From the NCBI GenBank assembly GCA_024239035.1, contig JANBVK010000001.1, positions 107,010-171,009 of the forward strand: a stretch of DNA of 64,000 bases, read 5' to 3'. The translations under genes and the position numbers were made by a program. Source of the stretch: Patescibacteria group bacterium (lineage in GTDB: Bacteria > Patescibacteriota > Minisyncoccia > UBA6257 > GWB1-50-10). Of the stretch, positions 2,053 to 64,000 are shown one piece after another; the stretch's first letter is position 1, and the number at the start of each line of letters is the position of its first letter. The notes beneath the pieces are model-generated. The model did no database searches, had not been told where the DNA came from, and worked only from the letters and a program-made list of their open reading frames with translations.

Positions 2053-3569
2053 AGTCCCATTAACCTATCTGCATTTTTATAAGCGAATTTTTCCTGAATC
2101 TCCGGGCTGAGTCCTCCTATGAAGTCTCTCGCAAACCATGTAACTTCGCCGTATACATCGTCATCGAAATGCCAAGAATAGAGGGCATCTGTTCCCCACA
2201 TTATTCTGTCTGGGTGGGCCTCTATTAGTGGCTTCCAGTAACGTAGTGCAGATGCTAAAATCCTATGATACATTTCATCGGAGTGTAAATTATTCAGGAA
2301 TTCTTCCTTGGTCATACCATCTATAGGTAGGCTATATGGATACATCAAACCCGCATCTATTGAGTAGTAGATATTATCATGCTCCCGGATAAGAAGCGGA
2401 ATAATTTTCTCCACCCCCTCATCACTATGCAGAAGGACTTTTGTTTTAGGATTGTCTCGTAACGCGTCATGTAAGTCATCAAGGTCACTCTCTCTTGGAT
2501 GAATCATGACTACTAAATTATTCAGAGCGGCGTAATCATAGAGCTCATACATCTCATCATCATTCAACCGAATATCCTTGTAGAGAGGATTTTCACTATC
2601 CACATGTATCTCGCCTATTCCTTTAATAGGATATTTTTTGACGTAGTCATCTATCAATTTTGTTGTAAAATACTTTCTCGACTTAATACCACTAAGACTA
2701 TCGGGAAAAAGGAAAGGATGTATTCTACCACAATATCTATTACCTATTTCCATGGCCTGCTTCAAAAAGGGATTAGTCCATTTTTTTTCTCTAATAACAA
2801 AAAAGTCATGGTTTAATGGAAGGAAACCGATTAAGCCGGTGACACCAAGAGTATCAAACATAGTAAAGATTTCATCTGCGTTATCTGAATTTATCAAGAG
2901 TTTAGTGTACTCAATTCCTTCCGGTGAATCTTGTGAATCTTGACCGGTTAGATGGAGATGTGCATCAAACAACGGACCGTCGTATTTCTCTTCAGGAAAA
3001 GATAGAGGTGAGGAGAGAAGGTTTGTATCAAGAATAAATGTTTTTGCGCTATCTTCTCCAATTCCATCGTGAACGAATCGGGCTATCTCTTTAGTAGAGT
3101 TGCCAACGACAGAGTAAAGTTTGTAGATGGTAGTTCCTGTCCCCTCTTTATTTATTTTAAATGTGGCGATGTCGCCATATTTCTGGACAATCGCATCATA
3201 CTCTGCAGTTATTGGAGGAAGAATATCTTCATTTGTCTCTGGTCTGGAGAGTTCATAAACAGTGAGCCCATCCACACTTACGTTCTTATCAGAGTTGGAT
3301 TCTTTATGTGGGATGTAGCTGGCAACCGTTACAGACTGAAGACCTTCCACTTCCACACTTGTCCATAAAGACGTTGTCTCAACGTTGACCTTCACTAGAT
3401 ACGTATCAGGAGGAGAGCCAAGAGTATTGGGTTCTGCGTTATATTCAAACGGCTTTTCAGTAATGACGCATGGTTCATTAAAATTATTCTCAATCTGTTT
3501 ATCTATAAAGAACGCTCCTCCCGCAATCACTCCAATAATAACTGGCACGAGAATTAATAGTTTTTTCAT
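2049..3569 (-). CDS. Membrane-anchored amidohydrolase-superfamily protein (HxH metal-binding motif)
   Basis: Motifs DAHLHLTG and GEIHVD are typical of metal-dependent amidohydrolases of the TatD/amidohydrolase-2 type. Likely start at the MKKLLILVPVIIGVIAGGAFF signal-anchor (3569) rather than the ORF-track start at 3665. Confidence 0.55.
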   Translation of the reverse strand: MKKLLILVPVIIGVIAGGAFFIDKQIENNFNEPCVITEKPFEYNAEPNTLGSPPDTYLVKVNVETTSLWTSVEVEGLQSVTVASYIPHKESNSDKNVSVDGLTVYELSRPETNEDILPPITAEYDAIVQKYGDIATFKINKEGTGTTIYKLYSVVGNSTKEIARFVHDGIGEDSAKTFILDTNLLSSPLSFPEEKYDGPLFDAHLHLTGQDSQDSPEGIEYTKLLINSDNADEIFTMFDTLGVTGLIGFLPLNHDFFVIREKKWTNPFLKQAMEIGNRYCGRIHPFLFPDSLSGIKSRKYFTTKLIDDYVKKYPIKGIGEIHVDSENPLYKDIRLNDDEMYELYDYAALNNLVVMIHPRESDLDDLHDALRDNPKTKVLLHSDEGVEKIIPLLIREHDNIYYSIDAGLMYPYSLPIDGMTKEEFLNNLHSDEMYHRILASALRYWKPLIEAHPDRIMWGTDALYSWHFDDDVYGEVTWFARDFIGGLSPEIQEKFAYKNADRLMGL

Positions 3570-16986: not shown

Positions 16987-17169
16987 GTAGTTGATAATCT
17001 TTTCTGTAATATGCCGGAGCGAAGCTATAAATTAACGAATGAAAAACAGAAAAGTAGAAAAACAGCGCTGTTTGAGCGAAACGAGTTCGCTGTTTTTCGT
17101 CAAGCTTTTCTGTTTTGAGGAGTATAATTTATCTGAGTAAAGGCGATTGCAGAGAAGATTATCAACTAC
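16987..17169. repeat. Repeat element family, copy A (about 183 bp, 20-bp terminal inverted repeats, core bidirectional terminator hairpin). 3' TIR overlaps the lepA stop codon.
   Basis: 5' arm GTAGTTGATAATCTTTTCTG and 3' arm CAGAGAAGATTATCAACTAC. Core AAAAACAGCGCTGTTTGAGCGAAACGAGTTCGCTGTTTTT. More than 85% identical to the copies at 48800 and 50523. Confidence 0.75.
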
Positions 17170-18959
17170 TTCTTCAACAGTTCCCTAAACACATCCGGCG
17201 TAATCTTCGCTTGAGAACGCTCCTTTAAACGTTTCTTGCCCTTCTTCTGCTTCTGCCATAGTTTCATTTTCCTCGTCCTGTCCCCGCCGTAAAGATGACC
17301 GGTAACGTTCTTTTTTAAAGCCTGAATGTCCTCTCGCGCAATTATATTCGCCCCCACCGCTGCCTGAATCGGCTGTGCAAACTGCTGTCGCGGTAAAAGT
17401 TTCTTAAGACGCTTAATCATCTCCCGCCCTTCTTGTTCATAAGTGCTTTTAGGAAAAAACCGGCTAAGCCCCGGTACCAATATCCCAGAAATCAGCACAT
17501 CAACCCGCAGGACATCCGATTTTTTATAGCCGGCTAGCTCATAGCTAAAAGAGGCATACCCCTCTGTTGCAGACTTTAATTTATCATCAAAATCGCTTAT
17601 AAGTTCCGCTAAAGGCATATCCGCATCTAACTTAACCCTGTCCTGTAATGTTTCAGTCATAATATTACTCAACCGAAAAAGCTTCTGGAGCGGAAAAAGA
17701 CTATTAATGTGGTTTTCGGGAACAATTATCTCAATCCTCACCATCGGTTCCCAAATCTCATCAAAATTTTCGGGTAAATCTTCGGGTTTTATAATTTCAA
17801 TGTCAGTACCTTTAACTTTCACTCGATACACCACCGACGGAAACGTATTCATAATACTGATCCCGAACTCCCGCCTCAAACGTTCCGCAGTAATCTCAAA
17901 ATGGAGACGGCCTAAAAATCCAATTTTAAACCCCCTGCCCAGCACTTCATTTTGGTCAGGATCAACGGTCAAAGACGAATCATTAAGTTTAAGTTTTTGT
18001 AACCCGCGTTTTAAAAGTTCATGGTCATTGCTGTCTTCCGGATAAAAAGATACAAACACCACCGGCTTCGGCTCCTTATAACCCGTAAGGGGCTGATAAC
18101 TAGTCGCTGGTTGCTGGTTACTGGGGACTATAATAGTGTCCCCTATTTTAATCTTTTCCGGATCCTTGACGCCGGTTGCAATATAACCGATCTCCCCGGG
18201 CTTAATTTCGAGTACCGACTTTAGCTCGGGAATAAAATAACCCAATTCCTTAATCTTAGAACCAGTCTTAGTCGCCAAGAGGTATATGTTATCATCACTC
18301 TTAATTTTCCCGCTAAAAACTCTAACAGACGCAACGACACCCTTATGGTCGTCGTAGAAAGAATCAAAAATGAGAGCACGAGTGTGATTGCTTTCGTCTT
18401 TGGGTGACGGTATGCAGCGAACAACTCCTTCAAGTAATTCTTTAACGCCTTCTCCTGTCTTCCCCGAAACAAGAAAAATATCTTTCTGCGATACCCCTAG
18501 AAGTTGTGCAACCTCACGAACAGCTCTCTGTAGTCGATTGTCGCTGCGGTCCTCGAATAAGTCTATCTTACTTACCGCGCCGATAATTTTTAACCCTGCC
18601 GCTTTCGCTGCTCGAAAGTTCGCCAGAGTCTGCGCCTGAATCCCCTGCCCGGCATCAACGAGTAAAATCGCTCCCTCCACCGCTACAAGAGCCCGGGAAA
18701 CCTCGTAAGAGAAATCAGAATGGCCGGGAGTGTCAATAAGATTTAGGTCATAAGTTTCAGCTTTCAAGTTATAACTCATCCGCACGGGAGCCATCTTAAT
18801 CGTAATCCCCCGCTCCCGCTCAAGCTCAAGCTGATCCAAGTACTGCGCTTTCATCCGCCTCTCCGGAACCGTCCCCGTAATCTCTAAAAACCTATCCGCA
18901 AGCGTGGATTTACCGTGATCGATGTGAGCGATTATACAGAAATTCCTTATGTTCTTCAT
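17166..18959 (-). CDS. lepA: Translation elongation factor 4 (LepA/EF4)
   Basis: NFCIIAHIDHGKSTLADR G1 motif, DTPGH, and full-length (597 aa) LepA-like sequence including the LepA-specific C-terminal domain. Confidence 0.95.
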   Translation of the reverse strand: MKNIRNFCIIAHIDHGKSTLADRFLEITGTVPERRMKAQYLDQLELERERGITIKMAPVRMSYNLKAETYDLNLIDTPGHSDFSYEVSRALVAVEGAILLVDAGQGIQAQTLANFRAAKAAGLKIIGAVSKIDLFEDRSDNRLQRAVREVAQLLGVSQKDIFLVSGKTGEGVKELLEGVVRCIPSPKDESNHTRALIFDSFYDDHKGVVASVRVFSGKIKSDDNIYLLATKTGSKIKELGYFIPELKSVLEIKPGEIGYIATGVKDPEKIKIGDTIIVPSNQQPATSYQPLTGYKEPKPVVFVSFYPEDSNDHELLKRGLQKLKLNDSSLTVDPDQNEVLGRGFKIGFLGRLHFEITAERLRREFGISIMNTFPSVVYRVKVKGTDIEIIKPEDLPENFDEIWEPMVRIEIIVPENHINSLFPLQKLFRLSNIMTETLQDRVKLDADMPLAELISDFDDKLKSATEGYASFSYELAGYKKSDVLRVDVLISGILVPGLSRFFPKSTYEQEGREMIKRLKKLLPRQQFAQPIQAAVGANIIAREDIQALKKNVTGHLYGGDRTRKMKLWQKQKKGKKRLKERSQAKITPDVFRELLKK

Positions 18960-19495
18960 AAATCGAATTCATGGACGGAAACATTGCCTATGTGAGGCGT
19001 TTTTTCTGAAAATAGATGGTGCGCAAGACGCACAATGCCACTGTGTGTCACAACAAGAATAATTTTATCGTGATAATCACGCTTTGATCCTTCTATAAAT
19101 TGAATTAGCCGCTGCTTGACGTCTTTCACTGATTCTCCTCCATACGGACGGAAGTCGTACTGTTGATTTCTACTAGCAATCTTATTAACCTTACCCTTTG
19201 TTTCCTGTTCTATCTCATCCCACGATTTTCCTGCAAGCGAACCAAACGAACGATCTTCTAAGTTCTTGTCTAACACTAAGGGCTTGTTAAAGCGCTGCTT
19301 GATAGCCTCCGCGGTTTGACTTGCCCGCTTGAGCGGAGAAGAAATAATGACGTCAAAATCACCGCTCAATTCTGCTGCAAGATCCTCTGCTTGCTTCATA
19401 CCTACCTCATTAAGCGGAGCATCTATGTCACTTCCCATAGGTTTTCCCTCTCTATTATAATCTGTCTCCCCGTGCCGAACAAAAATAAATTTCAT
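18956..19495 (-). CDS. Histidine phosphatase family protein (phosphoglycerate-mutase-like)
   Basis: FVRHGETDYN catalytic RHG motif and a later H in VVTHSGIVR. 4-nt overlap with lepA. Confidence 0.85.
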   Translation of the reverse strand: MKFIFVRHGETDYNREGKPMGSDIDAPLNEVGMKQAEDLAAELSGDFDVIISSPLKRASQTAEAIKQRFNKPLVLDKNLEDRSFGSLAGKSWDEIEQETKGKVNKIASRNQQYDFRPYGGESVKDVKQRLIQFIEGSKRDYHDKIILVVTHSGIVRLAHHLFSEKTPHIGNVSVHEFDL

Positions 19496-19503
19496 AAATG
19501 AAT

Positions 19504-19533
19504 TCTACACTATCTCCACCCAATAACACTAAT
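19504..19533 (-). pseudogene. Relic of a Cys-rich-paralog 3' end (degenerate copy of the conserved ...QAEVV-stop nucleotide block) just upstream of the phosphatase start
   Basis: ctacactatctccacccaataacacta matches ttacactacctccgcctgataacactg (the 3' end of all four paralogs) at 21 of 27 positions. Confidence 0.45.
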
Positions 19534-19549
19534 TTTTCCCTCAACTTTT

Positions 19550-21337
19550 TTACACTACCTCCGCCTGATAACACTGCTCGCAATAAACTATCTCCTCCCT
19601 ATCTGGTGCGTATGACGTTTCAAACTCGTTGGGACACCTGCCTTCCAGGTGATGATTATGCTTCGTGGTGTTTTTGTACACCTTGTAATCACACACGCAT
19701 TGACGATGAAAAAGCTGAGGTCGATTTCTCCACGCAACTCTATCAAAGTGTCTACAATTGAAACAAAGCCGAGGTAACGGCAAATTCAGTTGGCGATAAA
19801 ATTGAAGTTCTTGGAAAGTAATACGAAAGGCCGTTGCACAATTTTCTCCACATTGCTCAGGATGATTATTATTTTCATCATGCTGGCATTGAATGACTTC
19901 TTTTAAGATGTCATCACCCAACTTTTGAATTTGATCGGGAAGTTCATCTGAGGTTTTAGTTATCGAATATGCCCTCTCTTTTGGTCTACGCCAGTTGTAA
20001 CCCTGCGCTTTTGCTTCTTTTTCCGTAAGCGGGAAATATTCATGTGCCTGTGTTTCACTGTATCCAAATGCACTCATATCTGGCGGGAAAAATTCACCGT
20101 ATTTATACACCCGTCCTTTTGCATCAACATAAGGCATTTTGTTCATATGTTTAATGATTTTCGGAACCATCGCTCTATAGTCTTCTTTCGAATATTGCCT
20201 ATTTAAAATGCAGTATTGCTTGCTCTTCAATGCTACACAGCCAAACAAATTGTTTGATTGACGACAATTTACTGTATAGCGAGATTCATTTGCCGCAAAT
20301 GATTCAGCTGTAAAAAATGTGTTATAGATACCGTGGCCGGTGGCAATAATATCATAGGTAAGCTCTGTACCTTCGGAAGATGTAACATCCATGCCGTCTT
20401 TATTTGGACCATAAATCACGCTTTGGCAATGAGCCATATTTTGAGCAGTGCCCACAAAAAAACAATTACGAAGCTCTGTTGCATTATAGAGATAATCACC
20501 AGTACAATTTTTTGCTTGTACGCTATGCTGATATTTGACGGGGTGTTTGAGCCATACTTCCATTGCTTGTCCTCGAGCACGCTCAATACCAGACCAAGAA
20601 TCAAGTCTCATTTCTGCAAGCTTTTTTTGATATTCCTCCTTGCCGTAAGATTCATTGAAAATATGATAGCTCTTATTTCGCAACCCTGAACAACCAAAAC
20701 AACTATCACATCCGACACAATCCTGACTGAACCATACGTCGTTACACGAAGTGCAGCTTCGTGAGAAGAAGGTTTTATACGAATCATTGGTGTTGATACA
20801 GTAGTAGCAAAGCTCACATCCTTTACAGTTGACCATATCTATACACTGCTTACTCCTCAGTAATGTGACACTGTAAGCGCTATCCTCTAGGTATCCTGCA
20901 TCAAAACACAAGTAGCAGTTTTTTGCCCATGCTGCGATACTGTAATCACTGTTTGTTTTTTCCATAGACCACATAGGAGCCCATGGAACTTTGTTAAACA
21001 AGTCCCTGATTTGTTCAAAGAATGGTTTTGAGAAATCATACTCCATTCCATAATCCATGGGGTCCCATGCATCACTCTCCCAGTATTCGTAATCATAAAC
21101 TGGCATTGGAGCATCGGGAGGAATTAAGGTAAATATTTTCTTTCCTGTGGCATCACAAGTACGTTCGTAAAGGTATCGCATGTTGCGAAAAGACATCCGA
21201 CGCATTGCTCGGCATTTCCAACAAAACGTCGGCACCGGCACTTTTATCTTCTCATAAAACGCAAAATCTTGAGCCTCAACCTCAAATGAGTTCTTACAGT
21301 TCTGACATAGTCGTTTTTCGGCTTGGAAATCAGACAT
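19550..21337 (-). CDS. Cys-rich multi-CxxC zinc-ribbon protein, paralog 1 of a 4-5 member family (cytoplasmic, 595 aa)
   Basis: N-terminal CQNCKNSF...CWKCR and C-terminal RCPNEF...YCEQCYQAEVV zinc-ribbon-like motifs. Internal CKGCELCYYC and DCVGCDSCFGC clusters. No signal peptide. Confidence 0.8.
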   Translation of the reverse strand: MSDFQAEKRLCQNCKNSFEVEAQDFAFYEKIKVPVPTFCWKCRAMRRMSFRNMRYLYERTCDATGKKIFTLIPPDAPMPVYDYEYWESDAWDPMDYGMEYDFSKPFFEQIRDLFNKVPWAPMWSMEKTNSDYSIAAWAKNCYLCFDAGYLEDSAYSVTLLRSKQCIDMVNCKGCELCYYCINTNDSYKTFFSRSCTSCNDVWFSQDCVGCDSCFGCSGLRNKSYHIFNESYGKEEYQKKLAEMRLDSWSGIERARGQAMEVWLKHPVKYQHSVQAKNCTGDYLYNATELRNCFFVGTAQNMAHCQSVIYGPNKDGMDVTSSEGTELTYDIIATGHGIYNTFFTAESFAANESRYTVNCRQSNNLFGCVALKSKQYCILNRQYSKEDYRAMVPKIIKHMNKMPYVDAKGRVYKYGEFFPPDMSAFGYSETQAHEYFPLTEKEAKAQGYNWRRPKERAYSITKTSDELPDQIQKLGDDILKEVIQCQHDENNNHPEQCGENCATAFRITFQELQFYRQLNLPLPRLCFNCRHFDRVAWRNRPQLFHRQCVCDYKVYKNTTKHNHHLEGRCPNEFETSYAPDREEIVYCEQCYQAEVV

Positions 21338-21440
21338 AGCGTGTTGAGGCGAAATCCTGAGGAAAACCGAAGGGCTCCGGTTCGATAGTGAACTTTTGTT
21401 TGCAATTCTGACATTTCGAAGACACTGAGCTTGTCGAATG
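21338..21440 (-). pseudogene. Relic 5' fragment of a Cys-rich paralog (encodes CQNCKQKFTIEPE..DFA then stop) immediately upstream of the paralog 1 start
   Basis: tccggttcgatagtgaacttttgtttgcaattctgacat matches the paralog 2 5' coding region 23231..23271 at 32 of 41 positions. Frame is disrupted. Confidence 0.5.
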
Positions 21441-21464
21441 TGGTTTCGTTTCGGAATTCATAAA

Positions 21465-21502
21465 TTAATTACGTAATTAAATACGTATTTTAATACGTAA
21501 AT
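21465..21502. promoter_or_regulatory. Array of three TACGTA-centred palindromes at 12-bp spacing (AATTACGTAATT, AATACGTATT, TAATACGTAAAT) in the paralog 1 upstream region
   Basis: TACGTA at 21470, 21482 and 21494. The first two are perfect palindromes. Confidence 0.5.
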
Positions 21503-23290
21503 TCATACTACCTCCGCCTGATAACATTGTTCGCAGTAAACAATCTCCTTCCTCTCCGGAGCGTATGATGTCTCAAACTCGTTAGGGCATCTTCCTTCCA
21601 AGTGGTGGGAATGTTTTGTAGTGTTTTTGTATTTTGTAGCTTGCTCTGAGCCTGTCGAAGAGTCACACACGCACTGGCGGTGCCAAAGGTTTATAGGATT
21701 TCTTCTTCTGAAACGTGCATAATACCGGCAGTTGGGACATAGCCTAGGGAGAGGGATATTCATTTTTCTATAAAAATTGAGTTCATCAGAAACAATTCGG
21801 AAAGCCGTTACACACCTCTCTCCACATTTGCCCTGATGTGCACAACTAATAACTTCTTTCACAATACTGTCATCAACGTCTCTTATATGGTCAGGAAGTT
21901 GCTCTGCAGAGACAGTGATCTGATAAGAAGGTTTTTCGAGGTCACGCCAATTAAATCCTTGAGCAAGAGCGCGTTCTTTATCCAGCGGAAAGTAATCATA
22001 GGCCGGCGTTTCATTATAGGGGAAGGGAGACAGTTCTGTTGGAAAGAATTCTCCGTGAGCATATATCTTTCCCTTTTTATCTTTATATGACGCCTCGTTC
22101 AAGTGGTCTATAATTTGAAGAACAAGCTCCTCATATTTTTCTTTAGTATATTCTTTGTTTAAAATGCAATACTCCTTCTTGCGAAGTCCGATACACCCAA
22201 ATAAATCATGGCATCCGTTTTTACATATGTCACAATAGGTAATATTTCGCACTTCTGGCCAGGCATCCGAAGATAATTTCACATTGTAGGCATTCACGCC
22301 CATGGTGTTCACCTCATAGTTCAATTCCATCACGCAACACCCGTTGTTGATATCCATGGAATCCTTCGCTTTATTTACAAAAAGGCAATATCGGCAGTTT
22401 TCAAGTTCAGCCCCATTGAAACAGTGATAACAATCTTTAGAGTATGAAATCGTGTTTCCAACGACATTTGTTACGTTTTTAGTATAGGCATGTTTGTGCA
22501 ATGCTTTCTTTCTCATTGCTTCAAATTTAGCGGCATACGTTGAAAAATTCTTATACGAACCCGTATCAATGTCTTTCATTTTTTGCTTATAGTCCTCTTT
22601 GGTACATTGCTTATTTTCAAACACGTGAGACTTGTTCCAAATATTGCTGCTTAAAAAGCAATCTTGGGAACCCCTGGCATCGAAACAGAACGAAAGCCCC
22701 GTAGAACTCGCACAGTTTTCAACAAATATAAGTTGTGACACCTCGAGGCATTCGATACATTCATAACAATACTCTCCCCGGAGCACTATGAAACAATCAA
22801 CCAAGTTTTTAGAGTTCAAAATTCTGTAGCTATACATCGAGTCCTCGTTGTCCGAGCCTGAAAAAATGAGATAGCAATTTTTGCAATTTGCAATCTGGTT
22901 TGCGTATTCACAATTCACGCATTTATCAACTTGGAGCGCTACTCGAGGTACTTTATTCTGCAGCTCCTTAAATTGTGTAAAGAACGGTTTATTAAAATTG
23001 TATTCTCTTCCATATTGCGTTCCATCCCACTTATCTGAATACCAGCACTCTCGGCAATATACGGGGAAAGTCACATCCTGAGGATACATAGCAATAATAT
23101 CCTTGCGACAAAGGTCACATATTCGTTTATGAAGGCTTCTCTCATTTCGCCAAGAAAGTCTGCGTTGCAGCCGGCACGGAGGACACCACGTAGGCGCCGG
23201 CACTTTTATCTTCTCATAAAACGCAAAATCATCCGGTTCGATGGTAAACTGGTTTTTGCAGTTTTGACACTGTCTGGCCTCTTGTGTCAT
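21503..23290 (-). CDS. Cys-rich multi-CxxC zinc-ribbon protein, paralog 2
   Basis: Same architecture and termini as paralog 1 (CQNCKNQF...CPPCR at the N-terminus, YCEQCYQAEVV at the C-terminus). 35-bp nucleotide-identical patch with paralog 1 (GCCGGCACTTTTATCTTCTCATAAAACGCAAAATC). Confidence 0.8.
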   Translation of the reverse strand: MTQEARQCQNCKNQFTIEPDDFAFYEKIKVPAPTWCPPCRLQRRLSWRNERSLHKRICDLCRKDIIAMYPQDVTFPVYCRECWYSDKWDGTQYGREYNFNKPFFTQFKELQNKVPRVALQVDKCVNCEYANQIANCKNCYLIFSGSDNEDSMYSYRILNSKNLVDCFIVLRGEYCYECIECLEVSQLIFVENCASSTGLSFCFDARGSQDCFLSSNIWNKSHVFENKQCTKEDYKQKMKDIDTGSYKNFSTYAAKFEAMRKKALHKHAYTKNVTNVVGNTISYSKDCYHCFNGAELENCRYCLFVNKAKDSMDINNGCCVMELNYEVNTMGVNAYNVKLSSDAWPEVRNITYCDICKNGCHDLFGCIGLRKKEYCILNKEYTKEKYEELVLQIIDHLNEASYKDKKGKIYAHGEFFPTELSPFPYNETPAYDYFPLDKERALAQGFNWRDLEKPSYQITVSAEQLPDHIRDVDDSIVKEVISCAHQGKCGERCVTAFRIVSDELNFYRKMNIPLPRLCPNCRYYARFRRRNPINLWHRQCVCDSSTGSEQATKYKNTTKHSHHLEGRCPNEFETSYAPERKEIVYCEQCYQAEVV

Positions 23291-23300
23291 GGGTTATAAA

Positions 23301-25403
23301 TCACTTCCTAAGCGTCAAATCCAATATCACCCTCGCGTCCGGATCTTCATCTTCATAAATGAATATTGGGCTATTTGACTCCGACCAAACATAACCTAAC
23401 GGCGCCCCGAGAGTTACCCTCAAATTGCTCTTTACACCTGATTGGCGTTCAAAGATAAACCGGAACCTCTTTCCTGAACTCACACGAACTTGGTTGCCGC
23501 TCGGCGTTTGGTAACGCAGGTTCAACGTGCGGGTCTTCCCGGCCGGCGTCGTAAACCACGTTGCAAAAACACTTTTCCCGTGCGCTTCCATACTCCAGGC
23601 ATCATAGCCGGCAATGAGCACTCTGGTCTCCTCAATCTCTTGAAGATCGGCATTTACAGCGTATCCCTCACCATCATAATCAGGCCTCCGAAAACTTTTA
23701 GTACTGTTTCCTTTCAAAGAGACTAGGGTGGAGGCGGGATTTGTAAATATTTGAATAAAATTCTGATTATCTTTACGCCACCAGGGATCTTCTTGTTTAT
23801 CCCCTTCGTGTTTCCGTTCAATTGTTAAATCAGTAAAAACACCGCCGTCAGTATCAATATCCAGTCTTACCTCCAGCCGCTGCCGAACAAAAGCATCACT
23901 TTTACCGCCGGCGATATTAGCATCCACCACTGCAAGATACGAGCCCCAAAAACTGCTGGGCAACGGATAAACAGCACCGTCAATATTCTTAGAATTTAAG
24001 AAAGCCGCTAGGTCACCTTCTTTCGCAAAAATCATAATGTCTTTTTTGGTAATATGCCTTTCTAACTCATCAATTAGAGACCTTTGTCCTTCTTCTCCCA
24101 TCTGATCTAACCTCTCAAGAATGAGAGGAGTTAGCACGCTCAATACTTTTTTCGGATTCTCTCCTTTTTTCTTATCCCGGCCCGTTTCAACCTCTTTCTG
24201 AATCTCAATCAAAAAGTTATCTCGGTCTACCACTAAATCATATTCCTCTATCGGGACCGGACCAATAATACCGAGAATGGTCTCCATCACATTAATGTTT
24301 AGGGCAATAACGCCCTTGAAAGTAACGTCCTGCTCTTTGTAAAGTTTAGAGTTCTCTAAAAACCCCGTCACTGTTCTGGCAGAAGTAGGAAAGTCAAAAA
24401 ACCAATTAGCGTCTCTCGCTCCCCAATCCTTAGTTACTAACTGGAGCGGATCGGGCGGAATCACTTTTAATTCAAGGTTAAGAGGATGATCCGGCCAATA
24501 AATATCCTGAACTTCCAGGTTGGTCATCTGACCCCGCTCTACCTGCAAATCTGCGTAACTGCCAATAAAACCGCCGCCAGGTCTGATTTCGGCCGGATTT
24601 TGAAATAAAAGAAGAATATGGATCTCGTCTTCCGAATCAATAAGAGCAAGGAGCCCACCCAAGAAGCTGTCCAGATTATGAAGATCGGAACTATATTTAA
24701 GGTATTGATCGCCAATCTGCCCCTCAACGTTTTCAAAGAAAGAAGAAATAGATTTAAGGTTGGCGGCTGTATTTCTTATTGATTCAATCTGGCCAGTGAC
24801 TCCCTGTATTGACCCACGGATACCTTCTAAACGGTCAACAAGAGCTTGGCCGTCATTTTGGAAGTAATAAAAACCGTTCCCTTTCAGATCATTTAATGCC
24901 TCGGAGAGTTCTAAAAAATTAAGATTCAGGGCACTAATCTGACTTAAAAAGGCACCTGCTTCTTTAAAGGCCGGCAAGATGCTGCCGACGACGCTAAAGA
25001 GCACTCGGTTTTGCGGTCTCTCTAAAATGGCATTCAAACTTGATAATTCTTCAGTATTTTCTTTTAGGGCCAAACCAGCTTCAGCGGGTTCAAAAGCTCT
25101 GAGCGCCCCAACTGAAAAGGTAAAATTACTTACAATCTTATCTCCCTTCTCCACAATAAGCGCTTTTACTTCTTTGAGATTGAACGCAAGAAGAGTACCC
25201 ATAAGAATAAAAACCACCACTACTAAAGCTGTCCCCCATCTCAAAAATTTTTTATAAAATCCAAATCGGGCAGGTTCCTCTTGGAGCACATGAGTTAGAT
25301 TCAACTTAACAAACCTAACCGGCTGTTTATAATTGATACCTGGTTTTCTTATATCAACTAAAACCGGATCAATATTTTTAGCGGGTACAATTCGTTTTTT
25401 CAT
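23301..25403 (-). CDS. Large membrane-anchored extracytoplasmic protein, possibly DUF4012 family (polysaccharide-locus associated)
   Basis: 700 aa with a single N-terminal TM after about 60 residues. Sits next to GT4 and sugar-transferase genes. Confidence 0.4.
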   Translation of the reverse strand: MKKRIVPAKNIDPVLVDIRKPGINYKQPVRFVKLNLTHVLQEEPARFGFYKKFLRWGTALVVVVFILMGTLLAFNLKEVKALIVEKGDKIVSNFTFSVGALRAFEPAEAGLALKENTEELSSLNAILERPQNRVLFSVVGSILPAFKEAGAFLSQISALNLNFLELSEALNDLKGNGFYYFQNDGQALVDRLEGIRGSIQGVTGQIESIRNTAANLKSISSFFENVEGQIGDQYLKYSSDLHNLDSFLGGLLALIDSEDEIHILLLFQNPAEIRPGGGFIGSYADLQVERGQMTNLEVQDIYWPDHPLNLELKVIPPDPLQLVTKDWGARDANWFFDFPTSARTVTGFLENSKLYKEQDVTFKGVIALNINVMETILGIIGPVPIEEYDLVVDRDNFLIEIQKEVETGRDKKKGENPKKVLSVLTPLILERLDQMGEEGQRSLIDELERHITKKDIMIFAKEGDLAAFLNSKNIDGAVYPLPSSFWGSYLAVVDANIAGGKSDAFVRQRLEVRLDIDTDGGVFTDLTIERKHEGDKQEDPWWRKDNQNFIQIFTNPASTLVSLKGNSTKSFRRPDYDGEGYAVNADLQEIEETRVLIAGYDAWSMEAHGKSVFATWFTTPAGKTRTLNLRYQTPSGNQVRVSSGKRFRFIFERQSGVKSNLRVTLGAPLGYVWSESNSPIFIYEDEDPDARVILDLTLRK

Positions 25404-59831: not shown

Positions 59832-60800
59832 CTACAACTCTTCTTTTTCCAGACAGCGGGCCATCGGTAGAAATTTTTTCACCAGGAAGAGTGCGTAGCT
59901 TTTCGGTACATACTTGATGGGTACATGATACAAATCAACCCAGACATGACTGTAAATTGCAAAGAGTATAGATTGTTTTAAATAGTGCCGCTCTTTTTTT
60001 GATAGCTTTCTTTTTTTTAAATATCCCTCTAGAAATTTTTTAGTTAACGCTCTATCCAACCGTCCTTTACTCTCACAATTCCACATAATTGTTTTTCCCA
60101 CATCGAACACAAAAGAGTCCACATACGTATTGCCGAAATCAATCACCCCAGTTAATTTCTCTCCAATAAAAAGTTCGTTGTCGAGTTTGATGTCCACGTG
60201 GATTGGGCCCCGAGGAAGCCATTTGGGCAGACGATTATTCAGAACTCCCCGTTTTACCTCTTCAACAACTGCCTTTAGCTGGGGATGAGTTTGTCTTTTC
60301 ACATAACGATACATTAATGCCATTATTTTAGGGTTTAGGTCGTAAAATCTCCGCCTGCCCCGCATTGTCTTTTTGAACTTACTGCCCAACTTATGAAATT
60401 CTCCAACAAATTCACCAAGCTGATACGCCATCTTTGGTGTAATTCTTTTTGGTTGCCGACCGGGCAAAAATCGATACACGCTTACTGCGTATCCTTTGAA
60501 ATTCTCAAGATATTTTCGGCGTTTTGATGGAATATAATGAGGAACCGGTAAACGTTTCAGGTGTGTAAGAAAATTTATCTCGTGCAGGAGAGCGATTCTC
60601 GGCACGATCTTCATATCCGCAACAACGACTTTCTTGCTGGACAAATTGTGCTTTGCAACGATAAATTTCCCCTTCGGGGTTGTAATTGCTACCTTTGGCG
60701 TCTGATACCCCTGCCGGAAATACGTAATGTTCCCTATCTTACCAAGCTCAAATAAGTCTGTAATCTGCTGATATTCCCTTTTAGAAAAAAATTTAAGCAT
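59832..60800 (-). CDS. APH/CotS/homoserine-kinase-II family protein-kinase-like protein, translationally coupled to the upstream Cys-rich paralog
   Basis: Brenner motif IHVDIKLDN and DFGNT. AUG (MLKFF) 2 nt after the paralog 3 stop with GGAGG 10 nt upstream. The ORF-track start at 60836 overlaps the upstream gene. Confidence 0.65.
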   Translation of the reverse strand: MLKFFSKREYQQITDLFELGKIGNITYFRQGYQTPKVAITTPKGKFIVAKHNLSSKKVVVADMKIVPRIALLHEINFLTHLKRLPVPHYIPSKRRKYLENFKGYAVSVYRFLPGRQPKRITPKMAYQLGEFVGEFHKLGSKFKKTMRGRRRFYDLNPKIMALMYRYVKRQTHPQLKAVVEEVKRGVLNNRLPKWLPRGPIHVDIKLDNELFIGEKLTGVIDFGNTYVDSFVFDVGKTIMWNCESKGRLDRALTKKFLEGYLKKRKLSKKERHYLKQSILFAIYSHVWVDLYHVPIKYVPKSYALFLVKKFLPMARCLEKEEL

Positions 60801-60802
60801 TT

Positions 60803-62551
60803 CTACACCACCTCCGCCTGATAACACTGCTCGCAATATACAGTCTCCGGTCTATCAGGAGAATACGAAGACTGCATAGACTTTCCACATTTCACGCATT
60901 TTCTCTCATACAACTCCAGCACGATAGAGCCGAACTTTTTTCTTTTCTCTGCCAACCGTACACTGTAATGTTTCTGGGGTAAGGGAAGATTATATCTCCT
61001 GTAAAACTCTAATTCTGCCTTTATATAGCGGGATTTCTTATTATTTTCGCTGTCAAAGACAACTTTATTCAAAATATCGTCTTTCACCTCACGAATATCC
61101 TTAGGAAGATCTTTTGAATCAACGATTTCTCCTTCCACCTCATACAAAGTCTCCTGGATATCTTCTGTCCGATATCCATACCTCCTCGCCGTCTCAACGT
61201 CATCATATCCTTTATAGGAGGTAGCAATAGAAATATTGTAGGGAAACGGTGAAAGTTTGGGTGGGAAAAATTCTCCATATTCACCTTTCTCTAACATTTT
61301 TGCCTTTACTTTATCTACCATCTCCCAATAGTCTTTCTCAGCGTACTGCTTATTGAGAATACAGAACGATTTATTTTTAAGTCCGATGCAACCAAAACAG
61401 TCGTGGCAGTTAATACAGAGATCACAATATTCTATCTCACGGCAATCATCAACATCAATGGAAAATTTAATCCCGTAGTTATTGTCACCTGCCCAAGATT
61501 CATAACTAAACTCCGTACCTACACCGCCAACAATATCGTATGAATCTCTGGTTTTCGTAACTCCAATGGAATATGCCACGTTTTCCCCACCAATAATATA
61601 AAAACAAGCGTAACAATTTTTGGAATCCTTAATATAATCACCAAAACTTGCGACCGCTCGGTCGTTGTGAGTTTCTTTATAAAACGCCTTCTTTTTCAAT
61701 TCGGTGAACTTTCCTTTTAAAGAATTTAAAGATTCTCGGTCGCCAAGATTTAACGCTCGTATCTTCTCCTCATAAGCCTTTTTAGTCAACGGTTCATTAA
61801 AAAAGTGGTACTTTTTGTGACGCAAATTCACACAACCAAAACAGTATTCGCAATCTCGACAATCGAAAAGGAAGTAGGAATAGAGACAATGCTTCGAGTG
61901 CTCCACAAAAAAACAATTGAAGAGATCAGAACTTTCGAAACAATCGTAGCAGGTATCAGAGTTTCTCAGTGCAAAACCATCAAAGCAACTTCGCGAATCA
62001 ATCAAAGAAATACTATACGCACTATCTTCAGATTGGTAAGAATCAAAAATTAAATAGCAGTTTTTCAGTCGAGTCGAGTTATTGGTATAATCACTCCTAA
62101 TGCTTGTACTATCAATGTGGAGATTGGGCCGAGGAACGTTCCGCATAAGCTCTCCAAATTGATCAAAGAATCCCCGGCTATCGGTGTAGGCGCTGGCATA
62201 ATCGTTAGGATCCCATTCCTCGCCAAACCACATCTGATGTTCATAAACTTTGTATGGTGTGGTAGGGGGGTACTGAGAAATAATCGACTTTTTAGAAAAA
62301 GATGATACTACCTTAAAAAGATTGTAAGAATTCGTAAAAGCAATTTTTCTCCGTATACGTTCCTTGGGAGATAACGTTGGCAGAGGCACCCGCATTTTCT
62401 TGTAAAACTCAATATCTTCCGGACGAACGTAAAATTTCTCACCAGAAAATCGGCAAGTCCTCCACTGACCTCCCTTCTCATCTAATTCAAGTTTGGAAAA
62501 GTATTCATCCAGCGCTTTATCAAATTGTGGAGTTTTGCTCACTTGATTCAT
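60803..62551 (-). CDS. Cys-rich multi-CxxC zinc-ribbon protein, paralog 3 (N-terminal ribbon Cys lost)
   Basis: Same conserved blocks (KNCYLIFDS, CRDCEYCFGC, CDLCINCHDCFGC, GEFFPPKLSPFPYN, LEFYRRYNLPLP) and YCEQCYQAEVV terminus. Confidence 0.8.
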   Translation of the reverse strand: MNQVSKTPQFDKALDEYFSKLELDEKGGQWRTCRFSGEKFYVRPEDIEFYKKMRVPLPTLSPKERIRRKIAFTNSYNLFKVVSSFSKKSIISQYPPTTPYKVYEHQMWFGEEWDPNDYASAYTDSRGFFDQFGELMRNVPRPNLHIDSTSIRSDYTNNSTRLKNCYLIFDSYQSEDSAYSISLIDSRSCFDGFALRNSDTCYDCFESSDLFNCFFVEHSKHCLYSYFLFDCRDCEYCFGCVNLRHKKYHFFNEPLTKKAYEEKIRALNLGDRESLNSLKGKFTELKKKAFYKETHNDRAVASFGDYIKDSKNCYACFYIIGGENVAYSIGVTKTRDSYDIVGGVGTEFSYESWAGDNNYGIKFSIDVDDCREIEYCDLCINCHDCFGCIGLKNKSFCILNKQYAEKDYWEMVDKVKAKMLEKGEYGEFFPPKLSPFPYNISIATSYKGYDDVETARRYGYRTEDIQETLYEVEGEIVDSKDLPKDIREVKDDILNKVVFDSENNKKSRYIKAELEFYRRYNLPLPQKHYSVRLAEKRKKFGSIVLELYERKCVKCGKSMQSSYSPDRPETVYCEQCYQAEVV

Positions 62552-62558
62552 ACTCTAT

Positions 62559-62582
62559 TTAACAATTCGCGCGAATTGTTAA
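62559..62582. promoter_or_regulatory. Perfect 24-bp palindrome TTAACAATTCGCGCGAATTGTTAA filling the 32-bp spacer between paralogs 4 and 3
   Basis: Self-complementary over all 24 nt. Confidence 0.55.
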
Positions 62583-62583
62583 G

Positions 62584-64000
62584 TCATACTACCTCAGCTT
62601 GATAACACTGTTCGCAATAAACGACTTCTGGTCGGTCAGGGGCATAGGTTGTTTGAATTGACTTACCACATTTCGCACACTTCCGCGCGTAGAGTTTGAA
62701 GGGCCCCCGGCGGCGGAGACGATCAAGATAACGGCAGTTAAAACATTTCAGCGGTACAGGAATGAGCATCTTTCGATAAAACTCCAACTCTGGCTGAATT
62801 AAGCGGTAATTGAAACTACAACCCGTACACTTCAGCACTTCCTTCACAATGCTGTCAGGAATGTCTTTAATATGATCCGGTATATCTTCGGGTTGAATCG
62901 TTTCGTGGCCTTTCGTACGGGGAATATCATCTTCCCATCGAAATCCTTCAGCAACTGCCTGCTCTTTAGATAAAGGATAATTCTCTTGGGCTGGCGTCTC
63001 GTTGTAGGCGAAAAACGCAAGTCTTAGTGGAAAATATGAACCATATAATCCATCCTGTTCCATCTGTCTAACTATCTGATCTCGCATTTTACTGTAGTCT
63101 GATTCACTATACTGTTTATTTAAAATATAGTACTTTCCATTCTTCAACCCATCACATCCGAAACATTCCTCTGATCTACTCATGCCAAAACAGTACCGAA
63201 GTCCTCTGCAAGAATCACACCCCCATGACCCAATTACATTGTACGAGTATCCAACCGCAACGGTTTCCAACAAAAGCTCAGAGTCATACCCATATCCCAT
63301 AACGTCATAGCTATCCCTAGTAGATTTTGTAGCAAACTCAAATTTACAATCCTCTGATTCAGTTACCTCGAAACAGTGTTTACAATTCTTCGAATTGAAA
63401 ATATACTCCCCTTCTGAACCAACAGACTTTAAATTATTATTCTGCCTACGAGGGAACTGAAGCGCATGCTCCTCAAATTTCTCAAGCGCATCTTGAACCT
63501 TTTTATAACTCCCGGCAATCTCGGCAACTCTTTTCTCATATTCTTCTTTAGACAACGCTTCATTAAAAAAGTGATACTGCTTGTTACGCAAATTAACGCA
63601 CCCAAAGCAATCTTGACAGTTACTACAACCAAGTAAAAACCACGAGTTCAAACAGCTCATCACGTTCTGACCGTACCGCACGCCGTGGCTTTTATGCCCG
63701 TTAATGCATTCGTAAGATTGTTCAAGACTAATCGCGAAATAGATATCCAAAGAATCCCGACAATCTTTCACCCCACGCGAATAAGCTACATCTTCGTTAT
63801 AACCGCTATTAAATATTAAATAACAATTCTTGTTATATCCGGCGAAATTTTGGTATTCACTATTAACACTCGTACCTATCGTTGTATAAACGCTTTTCTT
63901 CGGTACCTTCAGCATTAACTCCTGTAATTGATCAAAGAACGCCCTCGAAGGATTATAATCTCGGGCAAAAGACTTTGCATCCCATTTATCTGAGTTATAA
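62584..64000 (-). CDS. Cys-rich multi-CxxC zinc-ribbon protein, paralog 4, 5'-truncated by the window edge
   Basis: The frame remains open upstream of the ORF-track Met to the window end (reads ...YNSDKWDAKSFARDYNPSRAFFDQLQELMLKVPKK, homologous to the WDxxxYGxEYxFxKPFFxQ block of the other copies). Ends YCEQCYQAEVV. Confidence 0.75.
   Translation of the reverse strand, partial: YNSDKWDAKSFARDYNPSRAFFDQLQELMLKVPKKSVYTTIGTSVNSEYQNFAGYNKNCYLIFNSGYNEDVAYSRGVKDCRDSLDIYFAISLEQSYECINGHKSHGVRYGQNVMSCLNSWFLLGCSNCQDCFGCVNLRNKQYHFFNEALSKEEYEKRVAEIAGSYKKVQDALEKFEEHALQFPRRQNNNLKSVGSEGEYIFNSKNCKHCFEVTESEDCKFEFATKSTRDSYDVMGYGYDSELLLETVAVGYSYNVIGSWGCDSCRGLRYCFGMSRSEECFGCDGLKNGKYYILNKQYSESDYSKMRDQIVRQMEQDGLYGSYFPLRLAFFAYNETPAQENYPLSKEQAVAEGFRWEDDIPRTKGHETIQPEDIPDHIKDIPDSIVKEVLKCTGCSFNYRLIQPELEFYRKMLIPVPLKCFNCRYLDRLRRRGPFKLYARKCAKCGKSIQTTYAPDRPEVVYCEQCYQAEVV

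Follow-up and report, generated by a model that had tools for sequence, protein, structure and literature searches.

In reduced genomes such as those of Rickettsia and Mycobacterium leprae, pseudogene decay leaves short remnants of genes in intergenic spacers. A comparable sequence was analysed here in a Patescibacteria group bacterium (GCA_024239035.1, contig JANBVK010000001.1, positions 107,010 to 171,009), in a stretch of 64,000 nt referred to below as the window. The relic, 27 nt long, resembles the remnants of reduced genomes in being a few dozen formerly coding bases between intact genes, subject to neutral drift and recognisable only through intact homologues. Its host likewise has a small (~0.73 Mb), streamlined genome. 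It differs from them in that its intact counterpart is a paralog in the same gene array and not the orthologue of a sister species; no orthologue of a lost gene was found at the relic position.

Integrative elements in tRNA and tmRNA genes have attachment sites with duplicated 3' gene ends. The relic is similarly a direct repeat of a gene 3' end downstream of the intact gene. It is, however, only 18 nt away from that gene, is accompanied by neither an integrase nor an inserted element, and is 78% identical to the intact end where attachment-site duplications are nearly 100% identical. Partial copies in tandem arrays, produced by unequal recombination or gene conversion, offer a further comparison: the 3' and 5' ends of the family repeat at every junction, and one such copy was seen in another genome (locus L034, below). 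The relic differs from these in preceding an unrelated gene, a histidine phosphatase, and no second copy of its junction is present in the 64 kb.

The window itself contains an intact family end arranged for translational coupling, at the junction of paralog B with a kinase gene. There GGAGG lies 10 nt from the kinase ATG and the stop codon 2 nt from it. The relic has GGAGA, 18 nt from the phosphatase ATG, and no upstream frame ends there. An earlier note on this DNA had described the two ends as lying at the same distance from the following start codon; the relic stop is in fact 9 nt from the ATG.

Leaderless genes are marked by TANNNT some 12 nt before their start codon (Zheng et al., 2011, PMC3160421). 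In the same way, TAGAAT occupies positions -12 to -7 before the phosphatase, an offset that is enriched in the window and in Patescibacteria loci. Here the hexamer differs from described leaderless promoters in being built from a fossil stop codon, and its function is predicted from sequence.

Genes of the window

The genes and gene fragments on which the analysis draws are as follows.

17166-18959, minus strand: lepA
18956-19495, minus strand: histidine phosphatase gene (His_Phos_1; Pfam PF00300, E 1.4e-43), its stop overlapping the lepA start
19550-21337, minus strand: paralog D, 595 aa, last intact member of the local array
21339-21461, minus strand: a further family fragment, the stump of an N-terminus (MNSETKPHSTSSVSSKCQNCKQKFTIEPEPFGF...), immediately 5' of D, whose start it overlaps; detected by tblastn with the four family genes masked
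21503-23290, minus strand: paralog C, 595 aa, its start 10 nt downstream of the DUF4012 gene
23301-25403, minus strand: DUF4012 gene
60803-62551, minus strand: paralog B, 582 aa, upstream of an APH-type kinase gene
62584-64000, minus strand: paralog A, its frame running off the window end

On the minus strand the order is DUF4012, C, a 165-nt gap, D, a 54-nt gap, phosphatase and lepA. Paralogs A and B are located 41 kb from C and D. The only family fragments that tblastn detected in the window outside the four genes were the 5' stump and the relic, which flank D. The phosphatase start was fixed by its RHG motif (residues 7-9) and by orthologues beginning MKFIFVRHGE.

The family consists of Cys-rich proteins of ~590 aa whose genes lie in tandem arrays, the longest with ten or more members. 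Homologues of D numbered 5795 at E<=1e-30, essentially all of them unnamed Patescibacteria or Parcubacteria MAG proteins, and the family is large, uncharacterised and specific to Patescibacteria. C and D matched no Pfam and no NCBIfam family, and a PDB sequence search with D gave no match. For A and B, Pfam gave nothing beyond a C-terminal CxxC-x17-CxxC zinc finger (PF23477), matched below threshold. A literature search for the family yielded nothing relevant, and an exact look-up of the paralog B protein found it absent from the record. In another genome (L020, GCA_040384425.1) 11 family genes, 9 of them whole, form one run with a spacing of 6-12 nt, interrupted only by a single 47-nt gap and by two unrelated genes.

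The four window copies are old paralogs, mutually 33-44% identical (44% for D and C). All four proteins end in YCEQCYQAEVV, and in the family alignment no part is better conserved than this C-terminal motif. In their last 30 codons C and D agree at 93% of protein residues and at only 53% of third positions, so the similarity of the 3' ends reflects protein-level conservation; recent gene conversion between the C and D ends was rejected on the same third-position value. Orthologues of D, 60-68% identical in protein, are found in many genomes, inside arrays with further members downstream. A recent foreign origin of D was rejected, its GC and GC3 being ordinary. The suggestion in the earlier note that D (its paralog 1) was added to the locus later finds no support in these data: D belongs to an old subfamily with orthologues in arrays, and its composition is unremarkable.

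Sequence and position of the relic

The 54-nt gap between D and the phosphatase was divided into the following parts, listed with the D end to which the relic was compared.

19496-19504, minus strand: junction, 9 nt (AATTCATTT), from the relic stop to the phosphatase ATG
19505-19531, minus strand: relic, derived by decay from the final 8 codons and stop of a family member; old frame TAG-CYWVEIV-TAG
19532-19549, minus strand: spacer, 18 nt (AAAAGTTGAGGGAAAAAT), between the D stop and the relic; not repeated in the window and without a hairpin
19550-19576, minus strand: intact 3' end of D (QCYQAEVV-stop), the reference copy

On the minus strand the gap reads TAA-AAAAGTTGAGGGAAAAAT-TAGTGTTATTGGGTGGAGATAGTGTAG-AATTCATTT-ATG. 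The relic, TAGTGTTATTGGGTGGAGATAGTGTAG (19531-19505, minus strand), is identical to the D end, CAGTGTTATCAGGCGGAGGTAGTGTAA (19576-19550, minus strand), at 21 of 27 positions, and at 21 of 25 in the core. The two copies are on the same strand with their stops aligned and lie 45 nt apart. An independent repeat search returned them as a 28-nt direct repeat, 82% identical, with a spacing of 45. The match of 21 in 27 and the shared orientation, both taken from the earlier note, were reproduced by the alignment and by the repeat search, and its mRNA-sense reading of the relic, GGAGAUAGUGUAGAAUUCAUUUAUG, is correct.

The six differences from the D end are C>T (three), A>G (two) and G>A (one). Identity to the other paralog ends is 21/27 for B, 18 for C and 17 for A, and the TAG stop of the relic is shared with B. 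Homology to D is limited to 25-28 nt. Neither the 9 nt 3' of the relic nor the 18 nt between the copies has anything matching in D, the spacer agreeing with the 18 nt that precede the D end at 3/18 positions. Gapped extension of the whole 54-nt gap against the last 90 nt of D, under three scoring schemes, left an ungapped 25-mer as the best alignment. Part of the relic also resembles a stretch inside D (19584-19602, 84% over 19 nt), and the motif GGAG-A/G-TAGT recurs locally.

The relic is non-coding: an in-frame TAG stands directly 5' of it, seven sense codons are left and there is no start codon. The region through the relic is identical in a second, independent Logan assembly (L001).

Several ways of producing such a repeat were considered and set aside. 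A tandem (slippage) duplication of the last 45 nt of D was rejected: of the 24/45 matches, 21 belong to the 27 relic positions and 3 to the 18 positions before them, and TRF found no array. A CRISPR-like repeat-spacer-repeat arrangement was rejected because there are only two degenerate copies and the spacers elsewhere are irregular (2-82 nt). For a diversity-generating retroelement, the mismatches are not adenine-specific and the repeat is only 27 nt long, lying over the most conserved residues.

Significance of the match

Both strands of the window were scanned for 27-mers with at least 21 matches to any of the four paralog ends; only the four true ends and the relic were returned. Of 300 dinucleotide shuffles of the 64 kb, 3 contained a match of >=21/27 to at least one of the four ends on one strand or the other (P ~0.01). 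When the 54-nt gap was locally aligned to the last 119 or 90 nt of D, the observed score was reached in 1 and 0 of 1000 shuffles, respectively, and for the B end in 3 and 0 of 1000.

A position weight matrix (PWM) of the family 3' end was built from 137 intact 27-nt ends, and 80 loci with family members were fetched. The relic scores 14.4 bits on this matrix, a modest value beside the 32-34 bits of intact ends. In shuffled data, 14.4 bits is reached by 0.8 hits per 1.08 Mb over both strands, or ~0.05 expected hits per 64-kb window. The similarity to the family 3' terminus is significant, and the relic is collinear with the gene model and on the same strand as the array. The earlier note had described a decayed family 3' end abutting the phosphatase start in the right orientation, and this description holds.

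The 54-nt gap was also aligned with the DNA upstream of the phosphatase in three other genomes (L017, L018 and L019). Alignment was at chance level (P 0.15, 0.93 and 0.39, respectively), and for this reason an origin of the relic as orthologous intergenic DNA was rejected.

Phosphatase locus in relatives

The nearest homologues of the phosphatase outside the host genome have amino acid identities of 80% (L017), 61% (L018) and 59% (L019), 80% being the closest relative in the collections searched. Among GTDB representative genomes the nearest homologues are 54% and 48% identical, with no synteny. In L018 the order is DUF4012, palindrome, an 88-aa ArsR/SmtB-type HTH gene, palindrome, phosphatase and lepA, and DNA homology to the window ends at the DUF4012 stop codon and restarts at the phosphatase ATG. 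In L017 a paralog 3' end (...YCEQCYQLEVV-stop) is followed by palindrome, HTH gene, palindrome and phosphatase. The loci L019, L102, L103 and L104 have other neighbours 5' of the phosphatase. The 9-nt junction of the window (19496-19504) is unlike the sequence 5' of the phosphatase in L017 and L018.

No homologue of the HTH gene was found in the window. The palindrome is represented there by one copy.

62561-62580, plus strand: palindrome AACAATTCGCGCGAATTGTT, separating paralogs A and B; relatives have it on either side of the ArsR-type gene that precedes the phosphatase

A conserved ArsR-type repressor with a AATTCGCGCGAATT operator accompanies the family.

Neither a family end nor a relic was found near the phosphatase start in any of the six orthologous contexts (L017, L018, L019, L102, L103 and L104; best PWM score <1 bit), and in the same six contexts no intact family gene occupies the relic position. 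JGI metagenomes were searched by pattern for a paralog end lying no more than 30 nt from MKFIFVRHG, with 0 hits. Since the closest relatives have the HTH-operator module before the phosphatase and none of the six contexts has a paralog end there, the HTH-operator arrangement is ancestral, the arrangement of the window derived and the relic specific to the host lineage. The ancestral coupling of phosphatase and paralog that had been proposed finds no support in the same loci, with HTH gene and operator in L017 and L018 and no paralog end in the four further contexts or in the JGI scan.

At fourfold-degenerate sites the phosphatase genes of the window and L017 differ by 26% (16/61). The relic and the D end differ at 22% of positions, a value of the same order, and the paralog ends among themselves differ at 2-4 of 27 positions. 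An origin of the relic after the split from L017 is compatible with these numbers, which are too small for dating.

Orphan 3' ends in other genomes

The 240 nt downstream of intact family ends in other genomes were scanned, on the strand of the gene, for another 27-mer resembling a family end. Such orphan ends were found behind 11-14 of 180 intact ends (6-8%), and 0 of 180 equal-sized control windows inside genes contained an end-like 27-mer. Orphan ends are a recurrent by-product of the family arrays, and the cases are heterogeneous. The earlier note had counted the lack of a comparable relic in related genomes against its reading. At the orthologous position there is indeed none; taken broadly, the expectation fails, as orphan ends recur.

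The orphan end of L034 forms the left edge of a tract of ~200 nt that is present, nearly identical, at another junction of the same array. The tract comprises 27 nt from the end of one gene, the junction itself and ~170 nt from the start of the gene that follows, and its presence at two junctions shows that junction-spanning copies or conversions do occur. The orphan of L032 retains a native ATGA overlap with the next paralog. Those of L037, L028, L083 and L063 are part of 29-42-nt tandem units with hairpins; in L037 ~20 nt within a 39-nt tandem unit are identical to the end of its own gene. Orphans that resemble the end of their own gene are also found in L060 (an unusual CYLKEVV), L034 (EVI-stop) and L029 (CYN). 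Strongly folding elements contain the orphans of L035 and L060 (z -5.5 and -3.0), and z is -3.6 for L037. The spacers between end copies are irregular (2-82 nt), and truncated family members of 154-331 aa also occur. What emerges is a very large, unnamed Patescibacteria family with arrays of at least ten genes, junctions that recombine and orphan ends in many genomes.

Origin of the relic

The relic is best read as the non-coding remainder of a family 3' end, left by an array member that was lost or was copied only in part (probability roughly 0.6). The host lineage remodelled the interval from DUF4012 to phosphatase-lepA, which now holds C, D and two family fragments. In this process an array member downstream of D would have been almost wholly deleted, or a partial, junction-spanning copy would have been placed there. 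After either event, what remains would be the stop codon with the 8 codons before it, joined to the following start codon through a 9-nt junction typical of the arrays. The stump was presumably left behind as the lineage contracted its array and lost the HTH-operator module. It has drifted and is not translated now. The form of the junction, TAG followed by 9 nt beginning AAT and by ATG, is also seen at three intact junctions of L020 (TAGaatcagcgcATG, TAGaatagcgatATG and TAGaatgatcctATG), which makes it plausible that a paralog end once adjoined the phosphatase start. Loss of neighbouring genes explains the present layout at least as well as a later arrival of D.

Set against a lost member are the following observations. 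No relative shows an intact gene in the D-phosphatase interval or a paralog end next to the phosphatase, and the lost gene is itself inferred. The closest relatives have the HTH gene and operator at this place, which calls for a minimum of two events. The ends of D and B match the relic equally well (21/27 each).

A copying event at D itself was weighed against loss of a member. Slippage, templated repair at a breakpoint or a short conversion patch may have produced the relic from the 3' end of D; it would then never have been part of a gene of its own and would have decayed since. Its distance of 18 nt from the D stop, the in-frame offset (45 nt) and the 21/27 identity to D agree with this, as do the orphan ends elsewhere that resemble the end of their own gene (L037, L060, L034 and L029). 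Nevertheless, a local copy is unlikely: the spacer matches D at 3/18 positions, the 9 nt after the relic are unlike the 3' flank of D, there is no tandem duplicate, and TRF reported no array at the relic. The relic is moreover as close to the end of B, whose TAG stop it has, and its TAG-AAT-N6-ATG resembles a native array junction. The same junction form, together with the survival of GGAG in the relic, would also suit the scenario of the earlier note, according to which the phosphatase was first coupled to an upstream paralog, D was inserted or substituted later and the relic still gives the ribosome-binding site. The 5' stump (21461-21339) and the 3' stump around D could then represent a single gene that kept both ends and had its interior replaced by D. 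This scenario must be considered improbable. GGAG is 18 nt from the ATG in a genome in which SD-like motifs are rare, no paralog end adjoins the start in the six contexts (the relatives with 80% and 61% identity included), and the metagenome scan was empty. D is an old orthologous subfamily of normal composition, usually located inside arrays, and replacement of an interior needs two simultaneous illegitimate joints, which is not more economical than two deletions.

The remaining account is a chance likeness of a purine-rich, low-complexity intergenic stretch to the family 3' end. The match is short and has 6 mismatches, a part of it resembles the second stretch in D (84% over 19 nt at 19584-19602), and a hit at its PWM score has an expectation of ~0.05 per window. 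Chance is nonetheless the least probable of the readings and was already disfavoured by the shuffles (3/300 over the window; 1/1000 and 0/1000 for the 54-nt gap against the D end); chance similarity was a ground for refutation named in the earlier note. The relic also lies directly downstream of a family member, on the same strand and with stops aligned, and the like arrangement stands behind 6-8% of family members elsewhere and in 0/180 controls.

As the vestige of a lost or partly copied member, the relic is a real but ordinary gene remnant, a scar of gene-array remodelling. It matters little in itself; it marks the remodelling of the array and the loss of a repressor-operator before phosphatase-lepA in a reduced genome.

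Ribosome-binding, RNA structure and promoter readings

The earlier note had suggested that the relic still provides the ribosome-binding site of the phosphatase gene. The GGAG of the relic ends 18 nt before the ATG and not ~5-10 nt before it, and its fifth base is A (GGAGA). Within 30 nt of the start, an SD-like 4-mer is present in ~10 of the 51 window genes, and no SD-like motif was found upstream of the phosphatase orthologues in L017 and L018. A role as Shine-Dalgarno site was rejected on the spacing and on the rarity of SD use. The relic region showed no hairpin, its folds of -5.7 and -8.8 kcal/mol (z +1.2 and +1.7) being worse than those of shuffles, and contained no terminator and no Rfam family.

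The stop codon of the relic and the next three bases form a hexamer resembling a -10 box.

19502-19507, minus strand: TAGAAT, -10-like hexamer made of the relic stop and AAT; candidate leaderless promoter element at -12 to -7, 6 nt before the phosphatase ATG

Hexamers matching TATAAT at 5 or more of 6 positions were counted by their distance from start codons. Exactly 6 nt before the ATG they occur in 6 of the 51 window genes, the phosphatase included, compared with ~1 at other offsets. In Patescibacteria loci the 6-nt offset is occupied in 7.3% of 467 starts and in 0.2% of internal ATGs; values for the same starts are 3.4% and 4.3% at offsets 7 and 8 and 0.4-3.2% elsewhere. This enriched geometry fits the scarcity of SD motifs. 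Of the whole relic, the stop codon alone has a plausible role today. It may now serve as a -10 box for a leaderless phosphatase-lepA transcript, in place of a lost operator-controlled promoter.

A consensus scan of the gap gave no -35/-10 pair and no TG extension; GTG stands directly before TAGAAT. The -10 hexamer stands alone, and by chance a hexamer of >=5/6 is expected at any one offset in ~1-2% of starts.

A wider role for array junctions can be drawn from the same hexamers, tentatively and with the odds against it. Junctions would double as promoters, a stop codon and three bases (TAGAAT or TAAAAT) acting as a leaderless -10 element. The stump would then have been kept for its promoter, which replaced the ArsR-repressed one, when the remainder of its gene was deleted, and the orphan ends that recur in many Patescibacteria would be retained expression signals and not neutral debris.

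The leaderless-promoter signature is clear in the phylum. Leaderless promoters would explain the missing Shine-Dalgarno sites in most window genes as well as mis-started public gene calls, of which the phosphatase is an example.

Paralog family and gene arrays

The family of Cys-rich proteins to which paralogs A-D belong was found to be very large (5795 matches at E ≤ 1e-30) and seems to be confined to Patescibacteria. Neither Pfam nor NCBIfam has a model for it, and a sequence comparison with the PDB gave no relative. Arrays of at least 10 family genes, each of about 590 aa and with junctions of 6-12 nt, were present in GCA_040384425.1 (whole locus).

Downstream of paralog B, an APH-type kinase gene follows at what is, judged from its layout, a classic coupled junction:

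60798-60836, junction of the B stop and the kinase ATG; stop 2 nt before the ATG, GGAGG 10 nt upstream

In another genome (L065, 11609-12580) a family member has this kinase (82% identical) as its immediate downstream neighbour, and the adjacency of family member and kinase is therefore conserved.

Junctions between paralogs C and D

Two features were located between C (21503-23290) and D (19550-21337):

21459-21508, minus strand, junction from the C stop to an N-terminal fragment; ATGAAT overlap, repeated start sequence, palindromes
21339-21461, minus strand, N-terminal fragment of a family member (43 codons, MNSETKPHSTSSVSSKCQNCKQKFTIEPEPFGF...), directly upstream of D

The stop of C overlaps ATGAAT, and the fragment begins 45 nt downstream of this with the same TATGAATT. 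The two copies of TATGAATT are separated by 37 AT-rich nt containing two perfect palindromes, ACGTATT-AA-AATACGT and TTAATTACGTAATTAA, and a 12-nt repeat was called here by TRF. The region has the appearance of a former ATGA-overlap junction that received a small insertion and had 8 nt of its target duplicated. The stop of the fragment in turn overlaps the ATG of D. The 'ET(K)HSTSS' leader is found again at the start of several different paralogs in other genomes, including the L031 orthologue of D and genes of L029; in three L034 genes at least the first 15 residues are identical, as are the first 30 in two of these. The leader thus behaves, at the sequence level, like a 5' module copied from gene to gene.

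Sequences around the relic

Two further features were found near the relic, the decayed copy of the family 3' end between D and the histidine phosphatase gene:

19498-19761, plus strand, antisense ORF of 87 codons spanning the relic and the end of D
19584-19602, minus strand, weaker purine-rich core inside D (ATAGGGAGGAGATAGTTTA), the third copy; 84% identity with the relic across 19 nt

The antisense ORF had no NCBIfam family match and is probably spurious; its repeated TLSPPNNT / TLPPPDNT simply mirrors the direct repeat of the relic and the D end. The third core copy, which shows that the purine-rich motif is locally repetitive, lies in D's codons for DREEIVY and reflects the likeness of the peptides EIVY and EVV-stop.

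Orphan 3' ends in other genomes

Some orphan 3' ends (extra family-end-like 27-mers downstream of intact family genes) were part of conserved, strongly folding elements. Instead of being debris, these may have a function, as terminators or regulatory RNAs:

L035, 3669-3754 and 5624-5709, 86-nt folding element present twice, z -5.5
L037, 1996-2073, tandem units of 39 nt, with a stop codon enclosed by the GCGAAG...CTTCGC hairpin of each unit
L060, 3789-3885
L029, 11786-11859; L034, 6395-6463; L063, 5282-5356; spacer with GAAGTCCCGCCGAAGCTTTGGCGAAGGCGGA common to all three

Palindrome and probable HTH repressor gene

A palindrome with the core AATTCGCGCGAATT was located as follows:

Window, 62561-62580, between paralogs A and B
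L017, 100-123 and 496-520, both sides of the HTH gene
L018, approximately 2862-2884 and 3246-3270, both sides of the HTH gene
L071, 2684 and 2993, both sides of the HTH gene
L078 (492), L099 (8087) and L070, between family members
L092, 20995

The gene flanked in the relatives L017, L018 and L071 encodes an ArsR/SmtB-type HTH protein of 88-90 aa, of which no homologue was found within the window. A conserved, autoregulated repressor linked to the Cys-rich family probably has the palindrome as its operator.

Gene calls and start signals

Public ENA calls for this genome place the start of the phosphatase (18956-19495, P0001) at Met20, giving 160 aa, which would cost the catalytic RHG motif, and begin D (P0072) 44 residues late (551 aa). 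The D protein was found under no NCBI source and the C protein was present there (KJI72_00440), so D may be annotated as a pseudogene at NCBI. A sharp peak of -10-like hexamers lay 6 nt before the start codon, both window-wide and among 467 gene starts (loci L017-L101), 7.3% of which had one there. SD-like motifs were rare, being present in about 10 of the 51 genes of the window, and the two observations suggest that leaderless transcription is widespread in these bacteria.
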